Virus record (IMG/VR): IMGVR_UViG_3300034069_000660
Span: 1-64,000 of that record
DNA: 64,000 bases
Origin: a virus
Reading direction: 5' to 3' (one strand)
Shown here: in pieces, positions 8,501-55,727 of the stretch
How positions within the stretch are numbered: position 1 is the stretch's first letter
Layout: each line of letters starts with the position of its first letter
Position numbers and translations under genes: made by a program
Notes under the pieces: generated by a model
Seen by the model: the letters and a program-made list of their open reading frames with translations, nothing else
What the model was told of the DNA's origin: nothing
Databases searched by the model: none

Positions 8501-11500
8501 ATGAATGGCTGTCCATCGGCATTCCGAAGTCCGTGCAAATATCCTGCCGGGCGGATCGTTCGAGCCCCTGAACTTGTAAGCGTATAGGTTTCGGCATCGG
8601 CTCCCTTCGCGCCGTCCTGAACCTTGTTTATCGACACCGCATCAGTCAGGCCGGTGCCCTCGATCGACGCGATCAGCGTCACGCGTCCGGTGGGGCCGCC
8701 ATGGTCGCGGATGACGGCCATGATACCAGCTTCCGTCAGCGTCATCGTGTCGACGTCCACCGCTGACCAGAATTGCGGGCCGTAGGCGGCAGCGAACTGA
8801 TCGGGGGGATATGCGGCAGTCACTGCCTGTCCGGCACTGTTCCGCAAGGTGAACAGGGTCCGGGCGTTTGTGTTCTGCCGCTTGGCCCCGAAGGTGATGG
8901 CCTGACCCGGGATCAGATTGCCGGCGGTGTCATAGCGCGCGGTCAGAGCGGATGCAGACAGGCTGATCAGGGCCGGTGATATTCCATTGTCGCCCGCGAT
9001 CGACTTGGCAAGGCTGAACACCTTGATCAGGCGCTTGCCCGCGTGTGCTGTTCCATCCTTGCCGATAAAACGGTACGTCGCGCGGGCAGACAGTTCGTCT
9101 GCATCAAACCCGGTGTTGATCACGTATCGTGGATATTCTGGCGCGGGAAATGGCCCGCCGTATCCTAGTCCTTGTGGGTTGTCCGTGCTGTCAAGACTGA
9201 AGCTTTCCGTGACGTCTTGTGTTCCGTAGAAGATGCTGACGGTAAATTCGGCCCCGGCATAGCTGATGACATTGCCGTTCGGATCGGCGGGCACAGTATG
9301 CATTTCGTTATCGAACTGAATGCTATACGCGCTTTCGCCATCCCTGACCGGCCGTGCCGTCAGAACGCTGCGATATTTAGACGTAGCGTCCAAGGCCTCA
9401 ACCCAGCGATCACGATATAGTGCCGGGTCCGGAATCGGAGTGACAACAGAAGTGTCATCCCATGACGATTGCGGCAGGAGGGCTTCGAGATAGGCGATCA
9501 GGCGATCGATCGCGGCATCAGCTGCGATCTTGAAGGGCTCGACGTCCTCTGGTTGCCCCAGCGCCTGATATCGATCATCAAGTGCCGACTGATCGCCGAT
9601 CAGTCCGCGATAATCGATGATCGCCTTGCTCTTTTCGCGTGGCGTCAGCTGGCCGTCAGACGTCACCGCGTCCAGCTGTTCGCGGATCAGGTATGCCGGC
9701 AGATCGGCGGAATCGACTTCGATATACGGCGGGTTCTCCGCCGTGACGCCAAGGAACGTGTTCCGGACGAAGTAGACGCCCGTCTCCGGCACGACGAAGA
9801 ATTCGGTCCTGACGTCGCCAAGCGACTGCGCATCGGCGATGTTCGTGGTCAGGCTATACAGAATTTCGGTTCGAAGTGGCCGGCGATCGTCGGGCTGTTC
9901 CCAGACCAGCGCCGCGACACCGGCATCATCGCTCGACGACAGCGACAGGTTGATGACGTTCGGGATTGAATCCACCTGACCGTCCAGATCAAATGTGCCC
10001 TCAACCCACCGCGTCTTCCTGCCCAAGCTGTCGAGCCCCCGGACCCGGAAAGACCATTGTCCGATGGCAACCCCCCTGACGGTCCTGCTGGTATCGGTGC
10101 TGTCGGCGAAGGCCTCCCAGCCCTGCCCGGGGGCCTTGAACTGCGCCTGATAGAACGTGATCCGGCTATCCGTCGAAGCGGTCCAGCTGACCTGCACCGA
10201 CGGGATCGCGGCGTCGCCATCGCGCAGCAGAAATTCGAACGCATCGATCCGTGTTGGCGGCAGCAGCGGCCCTGACGGCAGATCGATGAATTCGGGAGTC
10301 GAGATATCCCGCCCTAGTTCGACCCGGTCCCACTTGGTCGGATCGTGCAGCACGGCGCGGACCCCGAACGGAGGTTCGTCCGTGGTGATCGATCGCACCC
10401 GCCATTGACGATTGGCGATCTGGTCCGTCTCGATCGACCACACGGCACCGGGCATCGGTGGCGAAGGCCAGTCCGGGCCGGCGAGGTTGATCGTTGCCGT
10501 GGTGCCGGGGCCGTTGGTCACGACCCGCCGGCTGACGCTGCCGTTCCGGAGCATGACGCGCAGGCGATAGGTCTGCCCAGCCTCGATCTCAACCGGGGCG
10601 TCTAGCGTCATCTGCGACCCGGTTGCGGCACGCACCCGGCCGCCGCGCCGGCTTTCGGTGAACATCGGATCGGCAATCGCCGCGATACGGCCCGGCCCAA
10701 CGAATGAATGGTCGTCGCCGACGTCATAGGCTGCGGTGCTGTTCGATCCGGGCGCTTCGTCTTCAAGCCCCCACAGCGCCATGCGATGCGCCTGCCCCCG
10801 GTTGGTGACCCCGAAGGCAGTTACGGCATCATCGGCGCTGTCACCGCGCCGGCCGAACCGACGGATCAGGTCCGGGTCTTCGACGATCTCCGGTGTCAGC
10901 CGGAAACCGTCTTCCGGGTCGTTCCAGTAGACGACGCTGACACTGCGCCGCTTCTCGACGGGAGTGACGCGTCCATAGCTGATCCGACCTTCCACGACGT
11001 TGGACGGCGTGATCAGGATCGAAGGGTCTTCGGGACGGTCCTGTTCGGCGACGACAGTCCCGCTGCCCCAGTAGGCGAAGCCACGAAAATTCGAGGCGAT
11101 CGATGCGAGTACGTCATAGGCGGCGGCGGGGTTATTGATGACGCAGTTGATCGTATAGCGCGGCTGCATCCCGCCCCGGCCGTCCGGGACCATGCCGTCG
11201 CAGTGCTGCGCAATTGCATATAGCCCCCACTTGTCCACCGATTCAGGGGGGACCCTGCTGCCCAAACCGTACCGCCGCGCCACGACGATATCGCGGAAGA
11301 CCCATGCCGGGTTGTCGGTCCACGCCCGTTTGAAAGTGCCGTCCCAGACCGCGCCATAGGTGCGCGCCACCGGGTCATAATTTGATGGCACCTCGACGAT
11401 CAGACCCAGCAGGTCATAGCTGCGCGCCGGGATCGACGATCCGAATTGGCGGGCATCGACCGTCAATCCGATCAGCGCCGTGTCCGGATAGGACAGTTTT

Positions 11501-12756
11501 GCTTCGATCACCTCCGTCAGGAGGTCCCAGTGAGTTTCGTTGGCGAGCGTAGAGGACTGGCTATCCGGGGTCATCCGGGTCACCCGGATATCCCGCTGGT
11601 TACCGTTCGGGAGTCGAATGTCGGTTGACCACTGGTAGCCGCTGTTCGTGCGTCCGGTGAAGGTTTTGGACACGACGTCGGTGAACCCGCCACCGTCGCT
11701 CTGGACGCTGATCTTGATCTCGACGCTCGACGCTTTCAGATCACCGTTCGTCGTGTCCTGCATCTGCAACTGTGGCAGGCTGATGGTCACGCGCGCGACT
11801 GTCGCGTTCGGATTGCTGATCGAGCGTGTGACCGGGCCGGTCAGGACCCTGACCTCCGTGTTCACCTCGAAGCTATTTTCGGTCTGCGAGAAGCCCGGGA
11901 TAAAGTCCTGATCGGGCAGACCGACGCGCCGCTCGACCGCTACACCGGCGAAGTTGAACGATCCGTCCGCGTTCTGCAGCGGGGTGTCATCGAAATAGAT
12001 GGATCGCAGTCCGTCGAAGAGGCCGACGATCTCGCCCTCCGATACCAAGTCGAGGACCTTGGCTGTCGCCTGCGATTGCAAGCTGTTCGGGTCTTCCTGT
12101 GCCGCCCGGGTTGATCCCGCTGAACCGCCCTTGCCGCCACCCTTTTGCAGGCTGACCCATTCATCGCCGGCGGACGATCCACGAATGCCCGGTGTCGATC
12201 CGACATACCCGTCATAGACCGCGCCGCCTCCCGGATTTGTGGGATCGGCGCTGACAGAGGCCTCGTTGACGTCAGTGGTGCTGATCCCGGCGCTGACGAC
12301 AACCGATCCGGTCCTGAACCGACCATAGACAAGCGGGACAGGGTGTCCCTGTTCGGTGACATTCTCGGCTCCATCGAACACGAATGACGCCGTCTTCGTC
12401 GCCTCTTCCCGGCTGGCCGCCGTGGGTGCCTTCGGCATCGCCAGCACCGAAACAGATGCCACCGCCGCCAGCAGGAGCGTTGCCCCCAGCAGCACCTCCA
12501 CGACACCCCCGGCCGCGCCGGCCGGTGTGATATGGATATCACGCTGTCCACCAAGTTGGAGGTCGATCGCTTCCGCCGGCAGGACGGTGCCTTCCCCGAT
12601 GCTGACGACGTAGCCGCGATGCCTGATATATTCGCCAAAACCCGGCAGCTGGAAGACGAGCGCGCGGATGGCTTCCGTGGGTGACGCAACCGCCAGATCG
12701 AAGCGACGGCCGAAACGCTTACCTAGCCGTCCGTGAAGATGAATCGCGCGCAACAC
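5584..12756 (-). CDS. Tail-tip host-specificity protein (2390 aa from GTG 12756): lambda gpI-like domain fused in frame to a gpJ-like protein with a long modular C-terminal extension
   Basis: Single uninterrupted ORF 5584-12969. By-eye alignment to lambda I: IHLHGRLGKRFGRRFDL, PVPLVYGRFRTGSVVVS. By-eye alignment to lambda J: GGKGGSAGS, LVSEGEIVGL, RVTRMTPDS, YPDTALIGL, NPAWVFRDI, DKWGLYAIAQHCDG, NRGQAHR. GGAGA lies 7 nt upstream of GTG 12756. Confidence 0.9.
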   Translation of the reverse strand: MLRAIHLHGRLGKRFGRRFDLAVASPTEAIRALVFQLPGFGEYIRHRGYVVSIGEGTVLPAEAIDLQLGGQRDIHITPAGAAGGVVEVLLGATLLLAAVASVSVLAMPKAPTAASREEATKTASFVFDGAENVTEQGHPVPLVYGRFRTGSVVVSAGISTTDVNEASVSADPTNPGGGAVYDGYVGSTPGIRGSSAGDEWVSLQKGGGKGGSAGSTRAAQEDPNSLQSQATAKVLDLVSEGEIVGLFDGLRSIYFDDTPLQNADGSFNFAGVAVERRVGLPDQDFIPGFSQTENSFEVNTEVRVLTGPVTRSISNPNATVARVTISLPQLQMQDTTNGDLKASSVEIKISVQSDGGGFTDVVSKTFTGRTNSGYQWSTDIRLPNGNQRDIRVTRMTPDSQSSTLANETHWDLLTEVIEAKLSYPDTALIGLTVDARQFGSSIPARSYDLLGLIVEVPSNYDPVARTYGAVWDGTFKRAWTDNPAWVFRDIVVARRYGLGSRVPPESVDKWGLYAIAQHCDGMVPDGRGGMQPRYTINCVINNPAAAYDVLASIASNFRGFAYWGSGTVVAEQDRPEDPSILITPSNVVEGRISYGRVTPVEKRRSVSVVYWNDPEDGFRLTPEIVEDPDLIRRFGRRGDSADDAVTAFGVTNRGQAHRMALWGLEDEAPGSNSTAAYDVGDDHSFVGPGRIAAIADPMFTESRRGGRVRAATGSQMTLDAPVEIEAGQTYRLRVMLRNGSVSRRVVTNGPGTTATINLAGPDWPSPPMPGAVWSIETDQIANRQWRVRSITTDEPPFGVRAVLHDPTKWDRVELGRDISTPEFIDLPSGPLLPPTRIDAFEFLLRDGDAAIPSVQVSWTASTDSRITFYQAQFKAPGQGWEAFADSTDTSRTVRGVAIGQWSFRVRGLDSLGRKTRWVEGTFDLDGQVDSIPNVINLSLSSSDDAGVAALVWEQPDDRRPLRTEILYSLTTNIADAQSLGDVRTEFFVVPETGVYFVRNTFLGVTAENPPYIEVDSADLPAYLIREQLDAVTSDGQLTPREKSKAIIDYRGLIGDQSALDDRYQALGQPEDVEPFKIAADAAIDRLIAYLEALLPQSSWDDTSVVTPIPDPALYRDRWVEALDATSKYRSVLTARPVRDGESAYSIQFDNEMHTVPADPNGNVISYAGAEFTVSIFYGTQDVTESFSLDSTDNPQGLGYGGPFPAPEYPRYVINTGFDADELSARATYRFIGKDGTAHAGKRLIKVFSLAKSIAGDNGISPALISLSASALTARYDTAGNLIPGQAITFGAKRQNTNARTLFTLRNSAGQAVTAAYPPDQFAAAYGPQFWSAVDVDTMTLTEAGIMAVIRDHGGPTGRVTLIASIEGTGLTDAVSINKVQDGAKGADAETYTLTSSGARTIRPAGYLHGLRNADGQPFIDPNPEVGSSSDTYARSYTVCWRVSANVWRVRHFDVFGNGQITYPSDGFANGRPQGIDGMFNVLNAIPDGTPVIVYSSDEPNQNHTFPALLQAMYRCGASPEVFGKTFAYRGAYTLVGVAGWGQGRGFERVAGTIPHDPEGPTDALIQTTFQIVGGVPNSFTNGNNGVDGLPGVAGRNGITYYPYYAYANSPDGQIDFTTGEAGTRAYVGFGTGTSPTEPDSPIYYSWTAYKGPPFGLTSRNGVVVAGNQLIKQSGGYAWNADAYSTTGFRGGAAVAFRGTGDKGFMIGLNDDPNAGSSWEPLNYAWHPQSDGNASIYESGSYVGNFIVGYGLGLFQIIYDGNVIRYIYNGDVYREVPAPPNLTLYMDSSFLDEGARATDIEFTPVGAAAQSIQLSASSTTLRVGKDGNYFAGQRIDFNVQRTNMPGTTYFFLRNVDGNNIYAAPAAEYARQFPAQWGSSGPDNLYLTPQGAIDNMNAHGGAAGKFSMEAYVNGFTPVSRVTISKQQDGADGKNAIVAIADNETFTVPTDANGNYPAFPTDVSRGHLRVYEGLTEVTGQCTFTVQNPFYLDSYIDAAGAYFAIGLYNDTGYSDLVATYKGVAYTSRLTASKVKNGPRGTDGVNPPLISVAANPQAIRYDRDNNIISGDVVFTATLQNAMGPVSWRSLIGHGIYSTPGVSFSGNTMTISAARMRDVLAYNEANFGPATETIVASASGVSDMVTVTKIKDGSNGLAGAAGIGLIASPATFVIPSFANGTSKPTWAGGTCRIALNLGGQEIAADSYSYVAVSNVSSISISGQTISFTDIVGDRGEFTARATRAGVNYDLRITIVRANDGSAAFTSSTPFTGNFGAASGAANTTVPGGRTVRVSAYANYRAPNDQEGAGTLALYWRNLTDNGPLNFLGELGGSVASRYNQGSANDPIYNDIAGSVSTSYTFSSPSPDKSIEYSAAFRTTYGVLRLVDGRVAIDVIG
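5995..9333 (-). repeat. Protein-level module repeats inside the fibre gene (order B1-A1-insert-A2-B2-A3-B3); coordinates approximate
   Basis: A modules (~125 aa), each ending in a xK(V/Q/I)xDGxxG-type motif: approx 8605-8982, 6967-7341, 6307-6639. B modules (~105 aa): approx 8983-9333, 6640-6966, 5995-6306. Confidence 0.6.
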
Positions 12757-13534
12757 CGTCTGTTCTCCTGACCCAGTGCGTGATCCAAGGTGTCCATCGT
12801 GCGATGCTATCGCGTTTCGACAGGTGCCCGGGATCGCTTGGCAGACCAGATGACGGGTGATGCAGGGCAAGGCCTCCGTCAAGGTAGACCCCGGCGTGGT
12901 TCGGCACGTCAGAGCGGATCGCAGCGAGCCAGACGTCACCGTGCCGCACCGATCGTGCATCGATCTCAACGAAACCAGCGTCTGCGAAATATCGGCGATA
13001 GAGGTCCTTGTCGCCCGGCGTCTCCGCCTTCCACCACTCCCAGCTTCGCGGATAGTCCGGCAGATCGACCCCCGCCTCCCGGAGATACCACAGCCGGATC
13101 AGGGCATAACAGTCGGTCACGGCATGACGGAACGACCGTCCGACATAGGGTTCATCGTCACGTAGTTCGTCACCCCATGCGAACGGGATTTCGGTGGCCT
13201 GCCCGTTGGTCGATACGATGACGAAGGGCACGCACATTTCGATCTGCGATCGCATGTCCTGTTCGCTTGGGCAGTCCGGTCCCCCGGGATGACTGTGGCA
13301 CAAGGCGCGCAGGTCACCGGTCCTGATCAGCGCCGCCAGCACGCGACGATTGGCGAGGGCGGACAGTTTCGGCTCTGCCGCCACATTGACCAGCCTTTGA
13401 TATGCGCCCCGGCCGTCAATGTACCCCAGACATTCGGCCGGATATGCCTCGACGGCATGAATGCGAAGTGCCGCAACCGCTTCCGGGGTGCATAGCGCGG
13501 TACCGTCACACAGCTGCGCGCGGTCAGCACGCAT
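12719..13534 (-). CDS. Tail tip assembly protein, lambda gpK-like (JAB/MPN plus NlpC/P60 domains)
   Basis: Start is M70 of ORF 12719-13741, overlapping the gpL stop by 1 nt. Contains JAMM motif CHSHPGGPDCPSEQD. C-terminal Cys/His hydrolase region (TDCYALIRLWY..HAGVYL). Confidence 0.88.
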   Translation of the reverse strand: MRADRAQLCDGTALCTPEAVAALRIHAVEAYPAECLGYIDGRGAYQRLVNVAAEPKLSALANRRVLAALIRTGDLRALCHSHPGGPDCPSEQDMRSQIEMCVPFVIVSTNGQATEIPFAWGDELRDDEPYVGRSFRHAVTDCYALIRLWYLREAGVDLPDYPRSWEWWKAETPGDKDLYRRYFADAGFVEIDARSVRHGDVWLAAIRSDVPNHAGVYLDGGLALHHPSSGLPSDPGHLSKRDSIARWTPWITHWVRRTDGVARDSSSRTAR

Positions 13535-29612: not shown

Positions 29613-32372
29613 TTAGACGGCGGCCATGGCTTCATACCATGCCTTCGCCAGCATGGACGGACGTTCCGGCGGGAATGTGGCCGTCTGACCGACGTGATGG
29701 GTAAGCCCCCATGCCGTCGGACGATAGTCGGTGTAGAAGGTCTGGTTGCCGCCGACGATCCGCTGATGTTCGGTGATCATGTATTTCAGCAGATCGTAGC
29801 CCTCTTGAGACGCAAGCAGGTTATGCCAGAGTTGCCCGTTTCCGATATCCTCAAACCCACCTTCATATTCAAAGAACGCCCATCCCTTCGACACGGCGTA
29901 ATCACGGTTTTGTGCCGCCCGCCCGTAAACGATGGGAACATCATTCTTGATCCGTGTTACCAAGGTGGCAAGATCATTAGCCGACAAGTCAATGCCCTTG
30001 TATCCGCCGATATAAGGGGCCGTCGAAATCGACTGAATATATGGAGCAATTCCCGGCTCCGCTTCGCATACCTGCGGAGCCAGCGCGACCCCATCATTGT
30101 GAAGATCGACATTGCAAACCAGCAGGTCCGCCACGCCTTCGGCAATGAATTCCTCCATCACCCACGTCATGACCTCCTTATGTCGGAAGGACCAATACCT
30201 TAGCACCTTGTCATGCTGGCTTCCGCCGGTGTCGACGTATTTGCCGGCGGCTACCGCCCGCGCCGCAAGACCATCGGAGCCGCCCAGTTCGTCGGACCCT
30301 GCAACCGCTCGCCACGCCGGCTGTCCCGAGTTCCAAATCTCGTTCGCCAGCGTCCACATGACAAACATCATGTGCAGCTTCGCCCACTTCGCCGTTCGCC
30401 GCGCCTCCGTCCGCACCCATGCTTCCGTCGCCTGCAACGGAATATGGAAACGACCGGTGTTCCCCGTGGCCGTCAAAAGGCCCAGCAAATCCGGGGTGCT
30501 GTGGCGGATTGTCTGCCCGATATCTCCCGCCTGCGTAATACGCGGATTAGGATCAAATGCGGTGTCGACCGTCGATTGCATATCCATCAAACGCGATCCG
30601 AACTGAAATTTAGCATATCTCGAATTGATCGCGATATGATCTACGTCCCAATAGCCGGGGCTTCGACGGCTACCGTCATCGTTGATCTCGTAAATACGGC
30701 AGTTTGTGTATGCGGTGGCACCAAGCGGCTGGATTTGCATCAGGAACACATCAAGCGACTGGCCGGGAACCTGCCATTCACCTCGATAATACCGTACCTG
30801 ATCCCAGTTGAACGTAAAGTCGACAAACGACTCACCATTTGCAGAACTGACCCCACTAACGTCCGTTATCGAAGCGCCGCCGCCGTTGTTTCTGGTGTCG
30901 AGGCCCGTCATATCGCTGTCAATCTGCAACCGCATACGCTGGCTTGGTGCCGCCATACCGCCAATGTAAGCCACCGGCCGACCACCATTTGCGAACGCAG
31001 ATGCAACCGGAGTGCCTGCCGTGTTGATAGGGGGAATGGTATCATTGCCGCCGTCAATTCTACCTCGCCAGCTGCCGACGTTCTTGTTGGCCGTCGGCGC
31101 GTTCAGATAGTAATAGTTGGACGCATTGGGATTTGTCGCGAATGACGGAGCCGCTGCCCACACCACTCCACTTTGGGTGGCAGTCTCTCCGCTGGTGGCT
31201 TGCGTGATCCGGATGCGCGTCGGGAAACCACGCTTGGCCGCCGATAGTGCCGACTTGGACCGCAGCCGCACGCGGCCCGCTTGCGGATACTCGACCACCT
31301 CGGCATTGACCTTGTCGATCAGCGTACCGGCACCATCACCGGTCAACACCTCGATTGTCAGGAAGTCATTGATCGGCATGTAATAGTCGATGACGGCATC
31401 GACGAACCCAAGGCTGTCATAGGTCACCGATGCGAAAGAAACCGGTTTGTAGAGAACCGCATAGGCCCCGCCGGTTACATTAGTAAATTCCGCATCCGAT
31501 CGGAACCTGATGCTGGTCCGATCTGCATTATAGGCGTCAGGGTTTGCCGCGATGATTGTTGCCTTGCTGATAAGACTCTTGCGGACCCCATCCTGCAAAA
31601 CCTCGAAGTCGCCATTCGGCAGAAGCGAAGCACGGATTTTCCCATTCGCGGGATCGCTAACAGGATCGACATGAATGTCTTCGCCGATTTTGGCGTATTG
31701 ATTTCCGGGTACACCGCCAAGGAATAGATATTCATCATTTGCGATGGTTAGAAATAGCGGCGCGCCCGTTTCGCCGATGCAGAAATATGCGAAGAAACCG
31801 ACATTCTGCGGCTGAAATTCCCAGAACTGCGCATTGGAATCGGTGTCAGCAACATCCGTGTCCGACGTCGTGAGATTGTCAAAATTGGGTGGTGTCGTCG
31901 CTGGCGCGGGGAAGGCGACGACCTTTGCATCGACTGGCGGCGGGGGCGGCGGCGGGGGCGGGGGTGCCGGCGGCGACACGTCGATGATCGAGGCGGTCAG
32001 GACGAACCTCTTCTCGATTGCGAAACCGGATGGTCCTTCGACGCGCACGGTCAGCGTGACGGTCTGGTTCAGCGGGATCGCTGCCGTCGTCGCGATCAGG
32101 CCCTCCGGGCTGACCTGAATAGTGGCGGGACCGGACACCTTGTAGAAGGTCGCATCGGGAATGGTCGATCGCAGCTGCGATACGGTTCCGGTGACACCCG
32201 CCACGATCTCCGTGTTCAGCAGGGTCAGCACCGCCGCACCGCCAGTTTCGAACAATTCGCGGAACATACGGTCCACCGCTGCCCAGCGGCGCGGACCGGC
32301 GAAGAGGGGGGTCTTTACGGGTTCATAACCTTCGGCCACGGCGGTCACTCCTATCGGGTTCCCGGCCTGCAT
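29613..32372 (-). CDS. Large accessory protein (919 aa): Ig-like N-terminus, Pro10 linker, beta-rich middle, C-terminal glycoside-hydrolase-like region (candidate polysaccharide depolymerase)
   Basis: ORF track. GC visibly lower than flanking genes. PPAPPPPPPPPPP at aa 134-146. LANEIWN (E678) and FFEYEGG (E835/E837) are reminiscent of clan GH-A catalytic motifs; that is inference only. Confidence 0.7.
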   Translation of the reverse strand: MQAGNPIGVTAVAEGYEPVKTPLFAGPRRWAAVDRMFRELFETGGAAVLTLLNTEIVAGVTGTVSQLRSTIPDATFYKVSGPATIQVSPEGLIATTAAIPLNQTVTLTVRVEGPSGFAIEKRFVLTASIIDVSPPAPPPPPPPPPPVDAKVVAFPAPATTPPNFDNLTTSDTDVADTDSNAQFWEFQPQNVGFFAYFCIGETGAPLFLTIANDEYLFLGGVPGNQYAKIGEDIHVDPVSDPANGKIRASLLPNGDFEVLQDGVRKSLISKATIIAANPDAYNADRTSIRFRSDAEFTNVTGGAYAVLYKPVSFASVTYDSLGFVDAVIDYYMPINDFLTIEVLTGDGAGTLIDKVNAEVVEYPQAGRVRLRSKSALSAAKRGFPTRIRITQATSGETATQSGVVWAAAPSFATNPNASNYYYLNAPTANKNVGSWRGRIDGGNDTIPPINTAGTPVASAFANGGRPVAYIGGMAAPSQRMRLQIDSDMTGLDTRNNGGGASITDVSGVSSANGESFVDFTFNWDQVRYYRGEWQVPGQSLDVFLMQIQPLGATAYTNCRIYEINDDGSRRSPGYWDVDHIAINSRYAKFQFGSRLMDMQSTVDTAFDPNPRITQAGDIGQTIRHSTPDLLGLLTATGNTGRFHIPLQATEAWVRTEARRTAKWAKLHMMFVMWTLANEIWNSGQPAWRAVAGSDELGGSDGLAARAVAAGKYVDTGGSQHDKVLRYWSFRHKEVMTWVMEEFIAEGVADLLVCNVDLHNDGVALAPQVCEAEPGIAPYIQSISTAPYIGGYKGIDLSANDLATLVTRIKNDVPIVYGRAAQNRDYAVSKGWAFFEYEGGFEDIGNGQLWHNLLASQEGYDLLKYMITEHQRIVGGNQTFYTDYRPTAWGLTHHVGQTATFPPERPSMLAKAWYEAMAAV

Positions 32373-32408: not shown

Positions 32409-32485
32409 TGGTTGCGGGGACCGGATTTGAACCGGCGACCTTCGGTTTATGAGACTGACGCGCTACCAGACTGCGCTACCCCGCG
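32409..32485 (-). tRNA. tRNA-Met (anticodon CAT), 77 nt with encoded CCA; initiator-like acceptor stem but non-canonical anticodon stem
   Basis: Sequence CGCGGGGTAGCGCAGTCTGGTAGCGCGTCAGTCTCATAAACCGAAGGTCGCCGGTTCAAATCCGGTCCCCGCAACCA folds as a cloverleaf. It closely resembles E. coli tRNA-fMet as recalled from memory. Confidence 0.9.
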
Positions 32486-49103: not shown

Positions 49104-49592
49104 CTATCGCCCCTTGGGGTATGCCTGCTGTTCGGTGGCACGGGCCGCTAGGCGCTTACCCAGACCTGCCATCAGGTCACGGACTTCTAGACGCTCCTGC
49201 CGTTCCTCTTCCGTTTCATCGGGACGGGGCAGGGGCAGGGGGCGCGGTGCTATGCCTGCCTCCCTCCTACGGCGTTCAAGATCGGGCTCGATGGTCCGAT
49301 AGATCGTGGCGACGATCTTGCTGGGGTGATCTGCCAGTTTCAGCGCGGCGTCGCAGCCCTTGCGGAGAAGGTCGAGCGGGATGCCGTCGAGGGCACGGGC
49401 GGCGGCGTGAAGCCAGAGGGTGCGCTCCCCCTTGGTCATGCCGGCGGGGGCGACCAGCGTCAGACACGGGGTCAGTTCGGTGGCGAGGTCTTCGTCACGC
49501 GCCGGGGCTTGGTCGAAGGGCACGACGCTGTGAGAGGAAGTCGGAAGCGGCGTCAACGGTTGTGGACCTGTCCTGACGATCTGGTTGTCCAT
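49104..49592 (-). CDS. Hypothetical protein (162 aa; overlaps the upstream gene by 98 nt, alternative start 49439)
   Basis: ORF track. Confidence 0.4.
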   Translation of the reverse strand: MDNQIVRTGPQPLTPLPTSSHSVVPFDQAPARDEDLATELTPCLTLVAPAGMTKGERTLWLHAAARALDGIPLDLLRKGCDAALKLADHPSKIVATIYRTIEPDLERRRREAGIAPRPLPLPRPDETEEERQERLEVRDLMAGLGKRLAARATEQQAYPKGR

Positions 49593-50334
49593 TCGATTTT
49601 GCCTCTCTTCGGGCCAGAATGCCGGCCATGGTGGGGGTGTAGTATTTCAGGCTGTGCCGGGGCTTCCGGCGTGACGCGGCGTCCGCTTCCAGCGCCGGGA
49701 TGATCTCTGTGTCGGGATCGAGCCCCATGGTGATCCATTCGCGGACCGCGTCGAGTTGATCCGGGAACCGGGTTGTGTTCGGCATGACGGCAACTCCTGC
49801 GGCACGGGCGAGCCGGGCTGTGAGTTCGCCGATCTGGCCGAACGGGTCCGACACCTGCTTAGGCACGCTTACGCGTTCTTCGTCGTCTATATCTGACTCT
49901 GCTTCTGTATCTGTCGCGCCCGCGTACAGCGGCAACGGCGAAGCATTTGCTTCGTCACTGGCATTGATATCATTGAGCTTTTTCCGTTTCTCGCCGGATT
50001 TATAACCCCCGGTCGAACCGTTTTCGGCGCGTTTCCGCGACGTTTCCGCCGACTTTTCGCGCTCAATCCGGTATCGGGGATTGGAGATCAGGCCGTCGAT
50101 GATATCGATTTTGCCAGCGTCGATCAGCGATTGGCGAAGCTTGTTCCAGAGGCGCACCGACACGTTCAGATGCCCCGCGATCCAGCGTTCGCGATCCGGA
50201 ATGCCGGCATCGCCATCGGTGTCGTACATGAGGTCCAGAAGGGTGGTATAGGCACCGCGTTCTTCAAGGGTCAGCCCCATGTACCCGTTCAGGGCGTCGC
50301 CGTGGTATCGCTTGTGCCAGACGTTGCGTGTCAC
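49495..50334 (-). CDS. DUF1376 (YdaU-like) replication-associated protein
   Basis: N-terminal WHKRYHGDALNGYMGLTLEERGAYTTLLDLMY is typical of DUF1376. Confidence 0.65.
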   Translation of the reverse strand: MTRNVWHKRYHGDALNGYMGLTLEERGAYTTLLDLMYDTDGDAGIPDRERWIAGHLNVSVRLWNKLRQSLIDAGKIDIIDGLISNPRYRIEREKSAETSRKRAENGSTGGYKSGEKRKKLNDINASDEANASPLPLYAGATDTEAESDIDDEERVSVPKQVSDPFGQIGELTARLARAAGVAVMPNTTRFPDQLDAVREWITMGLDPDTEIIPALEADAASRRKPRHSLKYYTPTMAGILARREAKSNGQPDRQDRSTTVDAASDFLSQRRALRPSPGA

Positions 50335-50954
50335 CGCGCACCGTCCCTTTCGAGGGCGGCGTCGATCGCGGCGCGAAGGGCCGGCGGATACTTCGATTTG
50401 GTTTCAGGCTTAGTCTGTTTCACGGGACGGGCCTTCTGCGGCTTTGGCTGCGGTGGCAGCAGCTGTGCGGCCTCTGCGCGCTTCTGCCCCGGAGTAGCCG
50501 GGACGTCGGGTTGCTCGATCGCCTCAATCGTGATTTCGATGCGGGCGGGGTGGCCGTATCTCTTGACGCCGCCACCCTGCACCTGTGCGTCATCGACCCA
50601 TGCCAAGGTATTGAGGGCATCGACGATCAGCTTCTCGATGTTGTCCTTGTCCGGTTTCGAGGTGTGATAGAGGGTGCCGCGCTTGGCGGCCTCTTTCATA
50701 TACTTCGGCCAACTGGACGGAACGGCGAAGACCGCGACGAATTTCAGCATGACGGCGCGGGTGTATGGCTGATGCTTCGGGAACATCGCCTTGAACGTGG
50801 TCGCGACGACCTTCTCCGCTGCCAGCGTATCGGCGGGGGTGTGGACCGACGATATCGCCGTCGGGGTGCCATCGACCTCGACGACCCGCGCGCTGAAACG
50901 CGGGCGGCCCTTGCCCCGGGGTTCGCCGGCTACGGAGAAGGTCAGCCGGTTCAC
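50331..50954 (-). CDS. rusA: RusA-family Holliday junction resolvase with extended basic C-terminus
   Basis: GKGRPRF and KPDKDNIEKLIVDALN..WVDDAQV motifs. Confidence 0.8.
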   Translation of the reverse strand: MNRLTFSVAGEPRGKGRPRFSARVVEVDGTPTAISSVHTPADTLAAEKVVATTFKAMFPKHQPYTRAVMLKFVAVFAVPSSWPKYMKEAAKRGTLYHTSKPDKDNIEKLIVDALNTLAWVDDAQVQGGGVKRYGHPARIEITIEAIEQPDVPATPGQKRAEAAQLLPPQPKPQKARPVKQTKPETKSKYPPALRAAIDAALERDGAR

Positions 50955-51193
50955 GCGGTCTTCGTCTCGACCAGCTTGATCCAGTCGCCGACGATCGTTG
51001 CGTCATTGGCTTCGGCATCGCTGATCTTGATCGCGAACGCATCCTCGATCGCGATGGTGACCTCAACGACGTCGAGGCTATCCGCCCCCAGATCGTCGAT
51101 CAGGCTGGCGGTGTCCGTCACCGTGTCGGCATCCGCAGACAGGTGATCCCTGATGATTTCGCGGACCTGTGCCGCCTTGACGTCGTCTGCCAC
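50951..51193 (-). CDS. Acyl carrier protein (80 aa, GTG start)
   Basis: [22 protein letters not shown] aligns with E. coli AcpP [27 protein letters not shown] SD lies 5 nt upstream of GTG 51193. Confidence 0.85.
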   Translation of the reverse strand: [80 protein letters not shown]

Positions 51194-51255
51194 TGTTCTC
51201 TCCGTGTTGGCCTGATGCCATCCTCGCCGCCGATCGCACCGGCGGTCCGGGGGCA

Positions 51256-51672
51256 TCAGGCCGGGGTTGCCGGCTTGCGGCCCAAGCCGATCGACAGGGC
51301 CAGTTGGCGACGCGTCGCGGCGTAATTCTTCGCCACCATCGGATAATCGGAGTTCAGACCGTACCGCCGCCGGTATTCCTCCGGGGTCAGACCATTGGCG
51401 TTCAGGTGCCGCCGCAACGTCTTGTAGGGCTTGCCGTCGATCATGCTGACGATGAAGTCGTCGTTCGCGAGCGACTTGCGAACCGTCACCGCTGGAATGA
51501 ACGCCTCCGGGTTGGTGGGTTCTTCGACGTCGGGGGAAGGCTGATCGGTGGCAGCAAGCGCCGCATAGGTCGAGGCGACCAGCTGCGGGATATCTTCGGA
51601 CCGGGCGGCGGTGGAGAGGGCTGCGACGACGATCGAGGTGGTCGATATCAGCAGTTCTTTGGGATCGTGCAT
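51256..51672 (-). CDS. MucR/Ros-family DNA-binding protein lacking three of the four canonical zinc ligands
   Basis: IVSMIDGKPYKTLRRHLNANGLTPEEYRRRYGLNSDYPMVAKNYAATRRQLALSIGLG aligns with Ros [66 protein letters not shown] SD. Confidence 0.85.
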   Translation of the reverse strand: MHDPKELLISTTSIVVAALSTAARSEDIPQLVASTYAALAATDQPSPDVEEPTNPEAFIPAVTVRKSLANDDFIVSMIDGKPYKTLRRHLNANGLTPEEYRRRYGLNSDYPMVAKNYAATRRQLALSIGLGRKPATPA

Positions 51673-51755: not shown

Positions 51756-52451
51756 TCAGTCGGGGTCGCTGCCGGCTTCGAATTCGAGCGGGTTCTGATC
51801 CGGGTCGGTTGCGGCTTCCCGGTTCTCGCCTTCGAAGTCGGAGACGCTGGCGACGGTCAGCATGACGTGCTTGCCGCGCGCCTTGTGCAGGACGTCGACG
51901 GCACGATTTTCTTCCGACTCCTCGTTGGTCTTCACCTTGCCGGCGATGACGATATCGTCGCCGATGGTGACCTTGGTCAGCAGCACCCGAACCGGGTCCT
52001 GTTGACCGCGCGCCGCGATGGCCTCGACGATCTTGCGGATCAGTTCGCGCCCGGCGTGTTCGCACGCGGCGGCGACATCGCGCTGTTCCGCGTTCGAGGT
52101 GCCGGACCATGGCTTCGGCCGCGACTTGATCTGGTCCAGCAGGAAGTCCCGGGCATCATAGACCAGCGCCTTGTCGGACAGGATCGCGTCGGTCGCCATG
52201 GCTTCCATCCGATCGATCGCGGTGGCGTGTGCACCTTCGGACAGGTCATAGCCATCCGTTCCGGCCCCGGGCTGTGCGTCGATCGCGGCACCCAAGCTGG
52301 CAACGGCATCGGTCAGGGTGCCATCCTGTTGATCACCCGTCGCCGGGGTTTCGGTCGCTGCGGTCCCTTTCTTGCCGCCACGCCGCCGCGCAGCCTTGGC
52401 ATCTTCGTTCAGACCGACGGCGAGCGCCGCGATTCCATCATCATCCGCCAT
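51756..52451 (-). CDS. Hypothetical acidic protein (231 aa)
   Basis: ORF track. Confidence 0.55.
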   Translation of the reverse strand: MADDDGIAALAVGLNEDAKAARRRGGKKGTAATETPATGDQQDGTLTDAVASLGAAIDAQPGAGTDGYDLSEGAHATAIDRMEAMATDAILSDKALVYDARDFLLDQIKSRPKPWSGTSNAEQRDVAAACEHAGRELIRKIVEAIAARGQQDPVRVLLTKVTIGDDIVIAGKVKTNEESEENRAVDVLHKARGKHVMLTVASVSDFEGENREAATDPDQNPLEFEAGSDPD

Positions 52452-53118
52452 TTTCTTCTCCGGTGTTGCCGCGCCTCTGTGGCGGGGTGGGGTGATGACC
52501 CGGCGGGAGCCAGATCAGTTCGGTGCGATGCCGATGGGGCCGGGTGAAGACGATGGCGCAGTAATCCGCCATGCCGCCTTCATAAGGGCGGTCCATCTGA
52601 TCGATCAGGTGACCCGGGGGCATGGTGTGCCGCTCCCGGTAGATACAGACCTGCGAGGGTCGCCAGCGCAGCAGGCGATCCCGGCCCCAGCGGTCCTGCG
52701 ATGCCAGAAACGCGATCGGCAGGATGAAGGCTGCGCGGCGCACCGCGAAAGTGTCCACGACCTTGGTGATGATCCGTTCCGCGATCTCCGCCTCGTAGCT
52801 ATATGGCGGGTTGCAGATCACCGACGTCGCCCTGCCTTCGGCACGCGGCGGCCCCTTGATCTGGGTCAGAATATTGCCGCGCTGGAACCTGTGGCGCGGG
52901 TTGCGGTCCACGATATCGGACCCGAAGGTCGGGTGTCCGTACCGCTTCGCGACGTCGAGGACGTTGCCGCCGCCACAGCACGGGTCCCAGATCAGGTCAT
53001 TGCCGAAATCGACACCGTGCATCAGCTGTTCGACGACGCGGGGGCTTTCCCGGTACCAGTCATAGGGGGCGCGCTCCCACTTTTTCGACCGGTCACCGCC
53101 GGCGGGCCGGTTCGACAT
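52441..53118 (-). CDS. Orphan DNA N6-adenine methyltransferase-like protein (SAM motif precedes NPPY)
   Basis: DPCCGGGNVLD (motif I) and VICNPPYSY (motif IV). No adjacent nuclease. Confidence 0.75.
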   Translation of the reverse strand: MSNRPAGGDRSKKWERAPYDWYRESPRVVEQLMHGVDFGNDLIWDPCCGGGNVLDVAKRYGHPTFGSDIVDRNPRHRFQRGNILTQIKGPPRAEGRATSVICNPPYSYEAEIAERIITKVVDTFAVRRAAFILPIAFLASQDRWGRDRLLRWRPSQVCIYRERHTMPPGHLIDQMDRPYEGGMADYCAIVFTRPHRHRTELIWLPPGHHPTPPQRRGNTGEENGG

Positions 53119-53454: not shown

Positions 53455-53757
53455 ATGCCGCAGAAGAAACAGGCCCCACCGAAGGCGCTGCCCGGTGACG
53501 TTGTTCAGATCACCGCGACGACGCATGATCTGCGCGGCACGCTGGCGATCGTGTCAGAAGTCGGTCGTCGCCATGTCGGGGTCAATGTCGGTGCCATCGG
53601 CGGCGATGGCCGCGTCGTCACCGCGTACCAGCGGCTTCGACACGATGCCTTCGCGATCATTGGTGCCGCTGCGCTGCTGACCCCGGAGGTGCAGAAGGCG
53701 CGGGTCAATGCCGTCGAGACGGCGCGGCTGGTGGCGGAGGAAGCCCGCAATGGCTGA
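53455..53757 (+). CDS. Hypothetical protein (100 aa), first gene of the rightward operon
   Basis: GGAGG lies 5 nt upstream of the ATG. Confidence 0.5.
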   Translation: MPQKKQAPPKALPGDVVQITATTHDLRGTLAIVSEVGRRHVGVNVGAIGGDGRVVTAYQRLRHDAFAIIGAAALLTPEVQKARVNAVETARLVAEEARNG

Positions 53758-53914
53758 TGCGCGCAGCTACAGGGACTTCATCCCGTACCGATACCGCGAC
53801 GAGAAGCCCGCGATCCTGACGCCCGCCCCGGGTGCGATCGTGATCACGTCTCGCGGTGCTTTCGTCGTCGGTGACGATGGCAAGCACTATCCCCGGCCGC
53901 CGCGCCGGTCATGA
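53750..53914 (+). CDS. Hypothetical protein (54 aa)
   Basis: Start is M15 of ORF 53708-53914, overlapping the upstream stop (ATGGCTGA). Confidence 0.4.
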   Translation: MADARSYRDFIPYRYRDEKPAILTPAPGAIVITSRGAFVVGDDGKHYPRPPRRS

Positions 53915-54237
53915 GGTTCGCGGCGATCCAGCCGCGCACAGAAGAGGACGAACAGATGGCAATCTTCAAGGTAGGGATCGCAGGGCGAAAGTCGCCGGTG
54001 TTGATCAAGGCGGAGGGCAAGCGCGAAGCCTATGCCCGCATCATCACTTCCTGCGACGCCCTGACGGCAGAGGAAATGGAGGTGGCCCTGACGTCGGGCG
54101 ACAAGGTCTGGGCGGCGGGCGAGCCGTTCCCGGTCGAGGCCCCGGAGGTCAAGGGCGTCGACGACGGCCTGATCAAGGACGGCATGATCGATCCGGTCGG
54201 CGAAATGCGCAAGGCCGGCGAAGGCCTGCCCGAATAA
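53911..54237 (+). CDS. Hypothetical protein (108 aa; alternative start 53956 with GAGGA SD)
   Basis: ORF track. ATGA overlap at 53911. Confidence 0.5.
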   Translation: MRFAAIQPRTEEDEQMAIFKVGIAGRKSPVLIKAEGKREAYARIITSCDALTAEEMEVALTSGDKVWAAGEPFPVEAPEVKGVDDGLIKDGMIDPVGEMRKAGEGLPE

Positions 54238-54284
54238 CAACCCGGGCCGGCACCCTGCCGGCCCATCCCACCACAGGAGTATGT

Positions 54285-55727
54285 ATGCGCGTCGTTTCAC
54301 TGGTCGCACAGAATTTCAAGCGGCTACAGGCCGTCGAGATCGTCCCCACCGGCAACGTCGTCACGATCGGCGGGAAGAACGGACACGGCAAGTCCAGCGT
54401 CCTCGACGCCATCTATGTCGCGTTGAAGGGTCGCGCCGCGAATGCCCCGGTTCCGATCCATGCCGGGGCGGAGAAGTGCCTTATCAGGCTCGACATGGGC
54501 GATCTGGTCATCACGCGGACCTTCACCCGCAAGGGCGACACCGAATACACCGACACGTTGAAGGTCGAGAACGCCGAAGGATTCCGCGCCAGCAACCCAC
54601 AGGCGACCTTGAACGCCCTGCTGGGCGAGATCGGGTTCGACCCGTTCGAGTTCGCGCAGAAGGACCCGAAGAAACAGGCCGCCACCATCCTCGAAATGGT
54701 GCCCCTGTCGGTCGACCTCGACGAATTGGCGGAACAGGACAAGTCCGACTATGCGAACCGGCGCGATATCAACCGCGACGGGACCGCACTGGCGGCGCAG
54801 CTGGATGCGATCCCTGTCGAAGAGGTCCCGGAGAACGCCCCGGACCGGGACGCCCTTACCGAACGGCTGGCGTCGGCATCGGAGACGAACATCGCGATCG
54901 AGCGGGAACGCACGCGTCGCGTACAGCTGACGGCGACCGTCAATCGGCAGCGCCAGACCGCCGCGTCGGACCGTGAACGGGCGGCGGAATTGCGGGCAGA
55001 GGCGACCCGCCTGAACGAAGCCGCTGCACAGAAGGCCGCCGATGCTGCCAAAATGGACAAGGAAGCGGACACCGCCGCGCAGGCTATCGCCGAACTGCCG
55101 GAACTCGACACGCCTGTCGATGCCGCCGCGATCCAGCTGGAACTCCGGCAGGCAGACGCGACCCTTGCCCTGATCGATCGCCAGAAGCGGCGGGCCGAAC
55201 TGGCGACGCGGGTCGATGCGATGCGGGCCAAGTCGGAGGGGTTCACGAAGAACCTGCAGGACCGGGCCAAGCTGCGCACCGACGCACTGGCGAAGGCGCG
55301 GATGCCGGTCGAGGGCTTGGGCATCGGGATCGATGCGAAGGGGGAAGCCTATCTGACGTGGGAAGGCCTGCCCTTCGACAAGGACCAGATCAGCACCGCG
55401 ATCCAGCTGCGCGTCTCCACGGCGATCGGCATGGCAGCGAACCCGCAACTGCGCGTCCTGCGAATCAAGGATGGATCGCTGCTGGACGAGGACAGCATGG
55501 CGATGCTGTCGCAGATGGCGGTCGACGAGGATTTCCAGCTGTGGGTTGAGGTCGTCGGCAACGGCGGGACCGGGATCATCATGGAGAACGGCGCGGTCCG
55601 GGGCGACGAACCTGCCGACGATGACCCCAAGGGCCCGACCAGCGATGACGCCGCCCCGGATGCGCCGGCCGCCCCGAAGGCTCGCAAGGGCAAGGCGTCT
55701 GCCAAGGCACAGGGGGGCTTGCTGTGA
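54285..55727 (+). CDS. SMC/RecF/Rad50-like AAA ATPase (480 aa) with central coiled coil
   Basis: Start is M144 of ORF 53856-55727 (GGAG 5 nt upstream). Walker A GGKNGHGKSSVLDAI. Long Ala/Glu/Arg coiled coil. C-terminal LRVLRIKDGSLLDEDS (Walker B-like). Confidence 0.75.
   Translation: MRVVSLVAQNFKRLQAVEIVPTGNVVTIGGKNGHGKSSVLDAIYVALKGRAANAPVPIHAGAEKCLIRLDMGDLVITRTFTRKGDTEYTDTLKVENAEGFRASNPQATLNALLGEIGFDPFEFAQKDPKKQAATILEMVPLSVDLDELAEQDKSDYANRRDINRDGTALAAQLDAIPVEEVPENAPDRDALTERLASASETNIAIERERTRRVQLTATVNRQRQTAASDRERAAELRAEATRLNEAAAQKAADAAKMDKEADTAAQAIAELPELDTPVDAAAIQLELRQADATLALIDRQKRRAELATRVDAMRAKSEGFTKNLQDRAKLRTDALAKARMPVEGLGIGIDAKGEAYLTWEGLPFDKDQISTAIQLRVSTAIGMAANPQLRVLRIKDGSLLDEDSMAMLSQMAVDEDFQLWVEVVGNGGTGIIMENGAVRGDEPADDDPKGPTSDDAAPDAPAAPKARKGKASAKAQGGLL

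Follow-up and report, generated by a model that had tools for sequence, protein, structure and literature searches.

Acyl carrier protein gene in an early phage operon

The DNA analyzed here, designated the window, is a stretch of 64,000 nucleotides from a virus (positions 1 to 64,000 of the IMG/VR record IMGVR_UViG_3300034069_000660), and the gene under study, on its minus strand at 50951–51193, encodes an acyl carrier protein (ACP) of 80 residues. Gene order and protein similarity place the window with the Erythrobacter phages vB_EliS_R6L (65.7 kb; hereafter R6L) and ZS04, that is, in an R6L-like family. As read from the sequence, the coding region runs through 80 codons from a GTG start (51193–51191) to a TGA stop (50953–50951), and a Shine-Dalgarno-like GGAGAG (51198–51203, minus strand) lies 4 bases 5' of the GTG. 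A preliminary description of this DNA, made from the letters alone, had given the 80 residues, the GTG start, and the GGAGA Shine-Dalgarno sequence correctly, leaving the minus strand unstated, and had placed the codon of Ser39, the predicted phosphopantetheine site, where it is indeed found (51079–51077).

A second possible start, an ATG at 51256, overlaps the stop codon of the preceding gene for a MucR regulator as TGATG and would yield a product of 101 residues. The 80-residue form is favored, since the N-termini of the homologues in related phages align with the GTG position, the 21 additional N-terminal residues are Arg-rich and without conservation, and the ATG is buried in an RNA hairpin. 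This strong, GC-rich hairpin of 54 nt between the MucR and ACP genes (51209–51262, minus strand) encloses the alternative ATG as well as the stop codon of MucR; the surrounding 91 nt (51180–51270) fold with −42 kcal/mol (z = −2.75), 1 of 200 shuffled sequences being as good. An intrinsic terminator was considered for the hairpin and rejected, because it has no U-tract and was not called by a terminator scan. It could instead be an element of mRNA processing or stability, a translational barrier, or a scar of MucR insertion.

Two operons diverge from about 53.3–53.45 kb of the window. The minus-strand operon, to which the ACP gene belongs, begins with a 68-residue open reading frame (ORF) and continues with a DNA methyltransferase (52441–53118; PHROG 799, 5.6e-37; syntenic with R6L gp34 and ZS04_79), a conserved hypothetical protein of 231 residues (51756–52451; PHROG 6576, at least 189 homologues), a MucR/Ros zinc-finger regulator of 138 residues (51256–51672; PF05443, 1.8e-35), the ACP, a RusA-type Holliday junction resolvase of 207 residues (50331–50954; PF05866, 9.4e-25; PHROG 140, 4.8e-32), a DUF1376 protein resembling primosomal or replication-initiator proteins (49495–50334; PF07120, 3e-08; PHROG 34432 and 9327, 'primosomal protein'), and genes of no assigned function, all on the minus strand. 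The GTG start of RusA overlaps the TGA stop of the ACP gene by 4 nt, as GTGA. On the plus-strand arm are small ORFs followed by genes for an SbcC-like ATPase, a DUF3799 exonuclease, ERF, SSB, and DUF5131. Thus, the position of the ACP gene between a MucR-like regulator and RusA in an early DNA-metabolism operon, as first read from the letters, is confirmed by the PF05443 and PF05866 matches. The accompanying remark that lipid, polyketide, and phosphopantetheinyl transferase (PPTase) genes are missing nearby also holds, in that Pfam scans of the approximately 76 window ORFs, about half of which had no Pfam match, detected no gene for a PPTase, fatty-acid synthesis, polyketide synthesis, or lipid A.

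Identity and predicted fold of the protein

The 80-residue product matched the Pfam PP-binding profile PF00550 at 1.7e-10 (41.4 bits; cut-off, 20.8) over residues 9–72, corresponding to positions 2–64 of the 67 in the profile, and PHROG 5934 ('acyl carrier protein') at 1.1e-15 over residues 7–78. These family matches lie far beyond chance. Among the NCBIfam models for AcpP, the cut-offs of two subfamily models were passed (NF002148, 75.1 bits versus 71; NF002150, 68 versus 66), and the equivalog cut-offs were missed (TIGR00517, 67.7 versus 70.45; NF002151, 71.4 versus 92; NF002149, 63 versus 106). The best solved relative by sequence was the ACP of Brucella melitensis (2n57; 4e-16). An AlphaFold2 model built on 32 sequences had a mean confidence (pLDDT) of 85.5 and comprised four helices (residues 2–18, 39–53, 59–64, and 68–79), with Ser39 of the Asp-Ser-Leu motif as the first residue of helix II. 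In a Foldseek comparison, this model superimposed on solved ACPs of type II fatty-acid synthesis (FAS) with template-modeling (TM) scores of 0.85–0.92 and a root-mean-square deviation (rmsd) of about 1 Å, and the top 50 matches in the PDB were nearly all ACPs, mostly of type II FAS, or ACP-containing complexes (TM scores, 0.79–0.92). The protein is highly acidic, with an isoelectric point (pI) of 4.05 and a net charge of −13. Collectively, the gene product is a genuine type II (AcpP-like) ACP, as predicted by both sequence and fold; the preliminary description had anticipated a full-length AcpP-like protein in which the serine lies in a DSL motif and helix II is acidic, and two of the checks that it proposed, scoring against PF00550 and structure prediction, both support this assignment.

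The likeness to the housekeeping AcpP proteins of Escherichia coli and Brucella (2n57) extends to the fold (TM scores of approximately 0.85–0.9 and an rmsd of about 1 Å), the length, the pI, and the DSLD motif, and the acidic residues of the recognition helix are retained, namely Asp38, Asp41, Glu44, and Glu50 (Asp35, Asp38, Glu41, and Glu47 in E. coli) together with the equivalent of Asp56. Nevertheless, the window ACP is only 37–50% identical to cellular AcpPs, and its neighbors are MucR, RusA, the methyltransferase, and DUF1376 rather than fab genes, whereas its closest cellular relatives are housekeeping AcpPs, of which P0013 lies in a plsX-fabH-fabD-fabG-acpP-fabF cluster. The window ACP is therefore neither a housekeeping AcpP equivalog nor part of a fab cluster. 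In an alignment with the E. coli sequence, Glu49, Asp51, Glu53, Glu57, and Glu60 are replaced by Ala, Ala, Lys, Ala, and Asn, respectively, and Ala68 by Trp71.

Alpha-proteobacteria also possess divergent ACP paralogues, such as NodF, AcpXL, RkpF, and the sphingolipid-linked ACP, each of which serves one dedicated pathway and depends on the host PPTase, and the Sphingomonadales, the likely hosts here, make sphingolipids. These specialized ACPs adjoin their dedicated enzymes, none of which is present at the window locus, and the window ACP scored best against AcpP models.

Relation to ACPs already annotated in phages

The window gene is not new, as its orthologues R6L gp32 and ZS04_81 are already annotated as ACPs. 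Lu et al. annotated R6L ORF32 as an ACP, classed it as an auxiliary metabolic gene (AMG), and remarked of phage ACP homologues that their function 'remains unclear' (PMC5463345); elsewhere, phage acpP has been treated as an AMG with speculated roles in fatty-acid synthesis and membrane fluidity (PMC8224337, PMC11705849). A literature search for experimental work on phage ACPs found none. The R6L and ZS04 genes occupy an orthologous locus, with a replication protein after RusA, a divergent SbcC-like ATPase and DUF3799, and genomes of about 65 kb; however, their ACPs carry APGADSLD in place of the DLGADSLD of the window ACP, have longer N- and C-termini, and share 37–40% identity with it in a mosaic locus.

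Phage ACPs are found far beyond this family. At least 403 IMG/VR contigs encode relatives of the window ACP, PHROGs contains two families labeled 'acyl carrier protein' (PHROG 5934 and PHROG 4154), and tblastn retrieved annotated ACPs in phages of Brevundimonas, Erythrobacter, Olleya, Burkholderia, Ralstonia, Xanthomonas, and others. The members of the two PHROGs and the 'acpP' AMGs reported in Rhodobacteraceae prophages, Alteromonas phage R22Y, Ralstonia phage phiRSL1, Brevundimonas phage Bajun, and Olleya phage Harreka_1, are likewise stand-alone ACPs, usually located among early or small genes of no assigned function and with no PPTase nearby, as in the window. Their neighbors, however, are unrelated to one another and to RusA, whereas the window ACP is a syntenic core gene 5' of RusA. 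A fatty-acid desaturase adjoined 3 of 85 phage ACPs and a ketoacyl synthase 3 of 85 on the same count; among the 'prophage' cases in the literature, some have the genes fabG-acpP-fabF (PMC8224337).

ACP as a core gene of the R6L-like early operon

In R6L and ZS04, the genes for the methyltransferase, the hypothetical protein, the ACP, and RusA follow one another in this order with a 4-nt overlap between ACP and RusA and with no MucR gene. The closest relatives of the window ACP are 58–70% identical, and those whose context could be recovered (loci L006 and L015/L016) show the same arrangement, as does an IMG/VR locus from a separate scan (L017; ACP, 64% identical). To avoid circularity, whether the ACP is a core gene was examined by a search independent of it, seeded from the 231-residue neighbor, whose homologues are in many cases on contigs of 60–70 kb. 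The order hypothetical protein, ACP, RusA was found in every locus with enough downstream DNA (L099, L100, L102/L105, L103/L108, L107, L109, L110, L112–L114, L115/L116, and L117/L118), including L100, in which about 540 nt separate ACP from RusA; the contig of L104 stops just past the ACP gene. Moreover, an AAA_23/SMC_N ATPase is kept on the opposite arm in all family loci that cover that arm. Because every locus reached through the 231-residue neighbor with enough DNA carries ACP followed by RusA, the ACP is not a sporadic addition but a fixed syntenic core gene of the R6L-like early replication and recombination operon, almost always abutting or overlapping the start of RusA. What is new here is that every sampled genome of the family keeps the ACP next to RusA, together with the invariance of a few acidic and motif residues in divergent ACPs, the reassortment of ACP and RusA alleles, and the restriction of this linkage to the R6L-like family, all described below. 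Indeed, the ACP ORF is intact in all relatives, so that the sporadic pseudogene that had been named as a possible outcome was not encountered.

The window itself contains the methyltransferase, PHROG 6576 protein, ACP, RusA, and divergent SbcC-like ATPase with DUF3799 that mark the family, and departs from the common order only in MucR. The 231-residue homologue lies directly 5' of the ACP in every relative, whereas in the window MucR intervenes; MucR was seen at this position neither in the family loci scanned nor in the Pfam annotations of the other loci. R6L and ZS04 do have a MucR homologue (48.5% identical), which is located elsewhere in the genome, about 16 kb from their ACP (see PMC7710501). 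MucR has therefore moved, or been acquired separately, within the R6L-like family. Thus, of the ACP-RusA-MucR neighborhood that the preliminary description expected to be conserved, the ACP-RusA part extends throughout the family and the MucR part is peculiar to the window.

Linkage between ACP and RusA

The window ACP is 64–72% identical to those of L006, L015, and L017 and 37–40% identical to those of R6L and ZS04. RusA shows the reverse pattern, with identities of 35–36% to L006, L015, and L017 and 59–60% to R6L and ZS04. A mosaic breakpoint is located at the ACP/RusA junction, and the alleles of the two genes reassort. The pairwise identities of ACP and RusA among 14 genomes gave a Spearman coefficient of 0.08, a rough value, as some coordinates are approximate and the RusA of L102 was in the wrong frame. 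Co-evolution of ACP with RusA was accordingly rejected, on the grounds of uncorrelated identities and mosaic alleles.

A general functional pair of ACP and RusA was also rejected. RusA lies immediately 3' of the ACP in 5 of 85 phage loci on diverse viral contigs, all five R6L-like, and in none of the approximately 80 outside the family; neither in Olleya phage Harreka_1 nor in MW202777, for example, is the ACP followed by RusA. Within 4 kb on either side of 84 unrelated ACP loci, one RusA-like and one SbcC-like ORF were found, and no window protein recurs there. An all-versus-all BLAST comparison of the flanking ORFs of 96 loci, examined for a conserved partner gene beside phage ACPs, gave lineage-specific clusters only. 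The linkage thus looks like family synteny with translational coupling rather than evidence of shared function; the reassortment of alleles, the uncorrelated identities, and the confinement of the linkage to one family argue against a specific ACP-RusA complex.

Conservation pattern of the family ACPs

The 16 ACPs of the family are highly divergent, with pairwise identities of 28–90% (median, 43%) and a median identity of 42% to cellular AcpPs, and all are acidic (net charge, −10 to −16). Seven residues are nevertheless invariant in all 16, namely Asp38, Ser39, Leu40, Asp41, Glu44, Glu50, and Asp59, and Gly36, Asp38, and Ser39 are invariant also in a wider set of phage and cellular ACPs. The seven correspond to Asp35, Ser36, Leu37, Asp38, Glu41, Glu47, and Asp56 of E. 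coli AcpP, which are the pantetheine site together with the acidic 'recognition helix' and helix III contacts for AcpS and ACP-dependent enzymes. The flanking proteins are better conserved, with identities of 48–89% for the hypothetical protein across the family and 72–80% for the methyltransferase between the window and five relatives. This pattern says that modification and docking are under selection, the remainder of the ACP being free to drift. The invariance of Asp-Ser-Leu-Asp in 16 divergent proteins argues that the phosphopantetheine site is needed, and it weakens a reading of the protein as purely an acidic decoy or DNA mimic.

Three loci form an insertion subtype, in which 13–16 residues rich in His, Asp, Gly, and Trp are placed right before LGADSLD (L110, 4791–5081; L115, 4233–4529; L117, 4243–4527); the ACP of L117 gave a weak PF00550 match.

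Proposed role of the phage ACP and alternative explanations

Taken together, the identity of the protein as an ACP, the need for its pantetheine site, and its status as a core gene are well supported, and we regard it as very probable that all three hold. The specific physiological role is weakly supported. We favor a mechanism in which the phage ACP would be an early product, translated from the GTG that follows its own Shine-Dalgarno sequence, with the ribosomes that finish it reinitiating at the overlapping start of RusA. Host AcpS would then convert the protein to holo-ACP at Ser39, a host PPTase being required since none is encoded in the window. The holo-ACP would use its conserved acidic helix II to dock on ACP-dependent enzymes of the host and thereby form an extra, host-PPTase-dependent carrier pool in the acyl-ACP and fatty-acid/lipid network of the host, supplementing or diverting acyl flux; it would have no carrier role for a phage-encoded pathway. 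To this whole chain, we assign a probability of roughly 0.4.

Several points weigh against this host-network carrier. Host AcpP is among the most abundant and stable of bacterial proteins, so that an extra copy is not obviously limiting. AMGs are usually sporadic, and this ACP belongs to the core of a module for DNA metabolism. Linked lipid genes are missing from the window and from most loci of phage ACPs, and the constraint on the ACP, relaxed relative to the flanking proteins, fits a carrier with few partners better than a server of the whole FAS system. Furthermore, the expression, phosphopantetheinylation, and acylation of the phage ACP are all predictions from its sequence.

The same relaxed constraint leads to the explanation that survives best among the alternatives, in which the phage ACP, in its apo or holo form, would compete with host AcpP for one or a few partners, acting as a host-directed regulator or decoy that rewires or shuts down lipid synthesis or stress signaling. 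Precedents are the inhibition of PlsB by apo-ACP and the complexes of E. coli AcpP with SpoT, IscS, and MukB. Divergence outside the recognition helix with seven fixed residues is the pattern to be expected of a protein for which nothing but AcpS and one or a few partners counts, and this rapid change off the docking surface fits a regulator or decoy somewhat better than a general FAS helper; the early-operon position, the strong acidity (net charge, −13), and the lack of a detected phage-encoded acyl enzyme agree with it as well. The invariant residues, however, are equally needed for ordinary docking on FAS enzymes, so that their pattern is compatible with both readings. The partners are so far hypothetical, and the AcpP-MukB and AcpP-SpoT complexes were described in gamma-proteobacteria, whereas the hosts here are probably Sphingomonadales. 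Such competition is somewhat unlikely.

The constant company of RusA and of the divergent ATPase raises another explanation, by analogy with systems in which an ACP is a non-catalytic subunit whose pantetheine arm is needed for a non-lipid partner, as in E. coli AcpP-MukB and mitochondrial ACP-LYRM. The phage ACP might, in the same manner, be an acyl-pantetheine-dependent subunit of a DNA-processing protein of the phage, either RusA or the SMC/SbcC-like ATPase, coupling recombination or replication to host metabolism. All family genomes examined have the ACP beside RusA, in most cases with a stop codon that overlaps the RusA start, the AAA_23/SMC_N ATPase is conserved on the opposite arm, and the invariant serine is consistent with a pantetheine arm that flips into a partner. 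In addition, all family RusAs have a basic, Pro/Lys-rich C-terminal extension of 70–110 residues (approximately residues 145–207 in the window protein, within 50331–50800), whose net charge of +5 to +15 is opposite to that of the ACPs and whose terminal part is a conserved helix, (Y/W)(P/S)Pxx(R)xxI(D/E)xA(L/M)xRD. Yet adjacency within a family of conserved gene order is weak evidence by itself, the ACP and RusA alleles reassort with uncorrelated identities, and RusA does not follow the ACP in the approximately 80 loci examined outside the family. The likeness to MukB and LYRM is one of functional analogy only, in which the SMC-like ATPase on the divergent arm of the window would be the counterpart, no MukB or LYR-motif protein having been identified. 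We consider a subunit of this kind unlikely, and its stricter form, an obligatory pantetheine-dependent subunit or switch by which RusA or the ATPase would read the acyl-CoA or fatty-acid status of the host before DNA processing, distinctly so.

The 231-residue protein is always directly 5' of the ACP in relatives and is strongly constrained, 27 homologues sharing 41 invariant columns, to which an RPKPWSxTS motif belongs. It might therefore be asked whether this protein, or another of the window ORFs of which about half have no assigned function, is an unrecognized enzyme for which the ACP would serve as the carrier, DNA, protein, or a small molecule being covalently modified in a phage-specific way. 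The 231-residue protein, however, matched no Pfam or PDB profile, and its AlphaFold2 model, mostly helical and of low confidence (pLDDT, 61.8), had no recognizable features of an acyltransferase, adenylation, or ketoacyl synthase enzyme; besides, MucR separates the two genes in the window, and no partner family recurs beside other phage ACPs. A carrier for such a modification is consequently quite improbable. Finally, an acidic DNA mimic or anti-restriction protein derived from an ACP, or a decaying remnant without function, is very improbable: the protein is small with a pI of about 4, it is encoded in an early region with methyltransferases, and acidic proteins of ACP size can mimic DNA (Ocr, ArdA), but neither explains an Asp-Ser-Leu-Asp kept in 16 of 16 proteins at 28–90% identity, no relative has a disrupted ORF, the predicted ACP fold is a confident one, and the top 50 structural matches listed are, against a mimic, nearly all ACPs or their complexes.

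Stand-alone ACPs are common in phages, and their annotation defaults to 'auxiliary metabolic gene for fatty-acid synthesis'. The constraint added here is that, in a widespread family of siphoviruses of 60–70 kb, the ACP is a core early gene whose constancy is confined to the pantetheine site and the docking helix. Because two members of the family, R6L and ZS04, have been cultured, with Erythrobacter litoralis DSM 8509 as the host of both, the role of the phage ACP is directly testable. If that role had nothing to do with lipid metabolism, AMG annotations of a large class would have to be revised; if the protein were simply an extra AcpP, the finding would be ordinary.

The window as a phage genome

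Matches to Pfam and PHROG profiles in the window include structural and lysis proteins, namely a Mu-type portal, an F-like protein, an E-type major capsid protein, tail tube, tape measure, lambda J/L/I/K-like tail-tip proteins, a muramidase, an M23 peptidase, and terminase. The DNA-metabolism genes are those for ERF, SSB, DUF5131, several methyltransferases, the SbcC/SMC-like ATPase, the DUF3799 exonuclease, RusA, DUF1376, and MucR. Since a protein 100% identical to the window 231-residue protein is recorded on a contig of 65,524 bp, the 64-kb window looks like essentially the whole genome of the phage, a near-complete siphovirus. Megablast of positions 44–58 kb against GenBank phages gave no match, the window being too divergent from R6L and ZS04. 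The PHROG 6576 protein also serves as a marker of a widespread family of phages of 60–70 kb.

The preliminary description had framed the locus as that of a prophage acting after induction, which finds no support here. No integrase family was detected among the approximately 76 ORFs, and both ends of the window are phage-like with no bacterial flank detected, attachment sites not having been searched for; a search of 185,579 species-representative genomes gave no close copy of the ACP, and R6L has neither integrase nor repressor (PMC5463345).

In a PADLOC scan, neither the ACP nor its neighbors gave a match, which is a weak check, as the library holds defense rather than anti-defense proteins; the SbcC/SMC-like ATPase gave P-loop-level matches to the LmuB, PtuA, GajA, and JetC models. 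The ORF of this ATPase (53856–55727) is over-extended at its 5' end, relatives encoding 460–480 residues. Its real start is probably an internal ATG, that of MRVVSLVAQNF near 54.29 kb, which leaves room for ORFs at 53455–53757 and 53911–54237.

A gene for tRNA-Met (CAT) is present at 32409–32485 on the minus strand; according to the published description, R6L lacks tRNA genes (PMC5463345). The window also has ORFs of 919 and 2461 residues, both very large (29613–32372 and 5584–12969, minus strand), in segments with a G+C content of 57–59%, compared with about 64–65% elsewhere, which suggests acquisition or exchange. The former, situated between the genes for the portal and the tRNA, matched no Pfam family, and the latter may be a tail-tip or host-specificity protein, the member that gave the J-like Pfam match being unspecified. 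A whole R6L-like phage genome (L118; GCA_037721595.1, JBBJOO010000001.1, 64,605 bp) constitutes contig 1 of a metagenome-assembled genome labeled Nocardioides sp., which is probably a binning artifact rather than evidence of an actinobacterial host.

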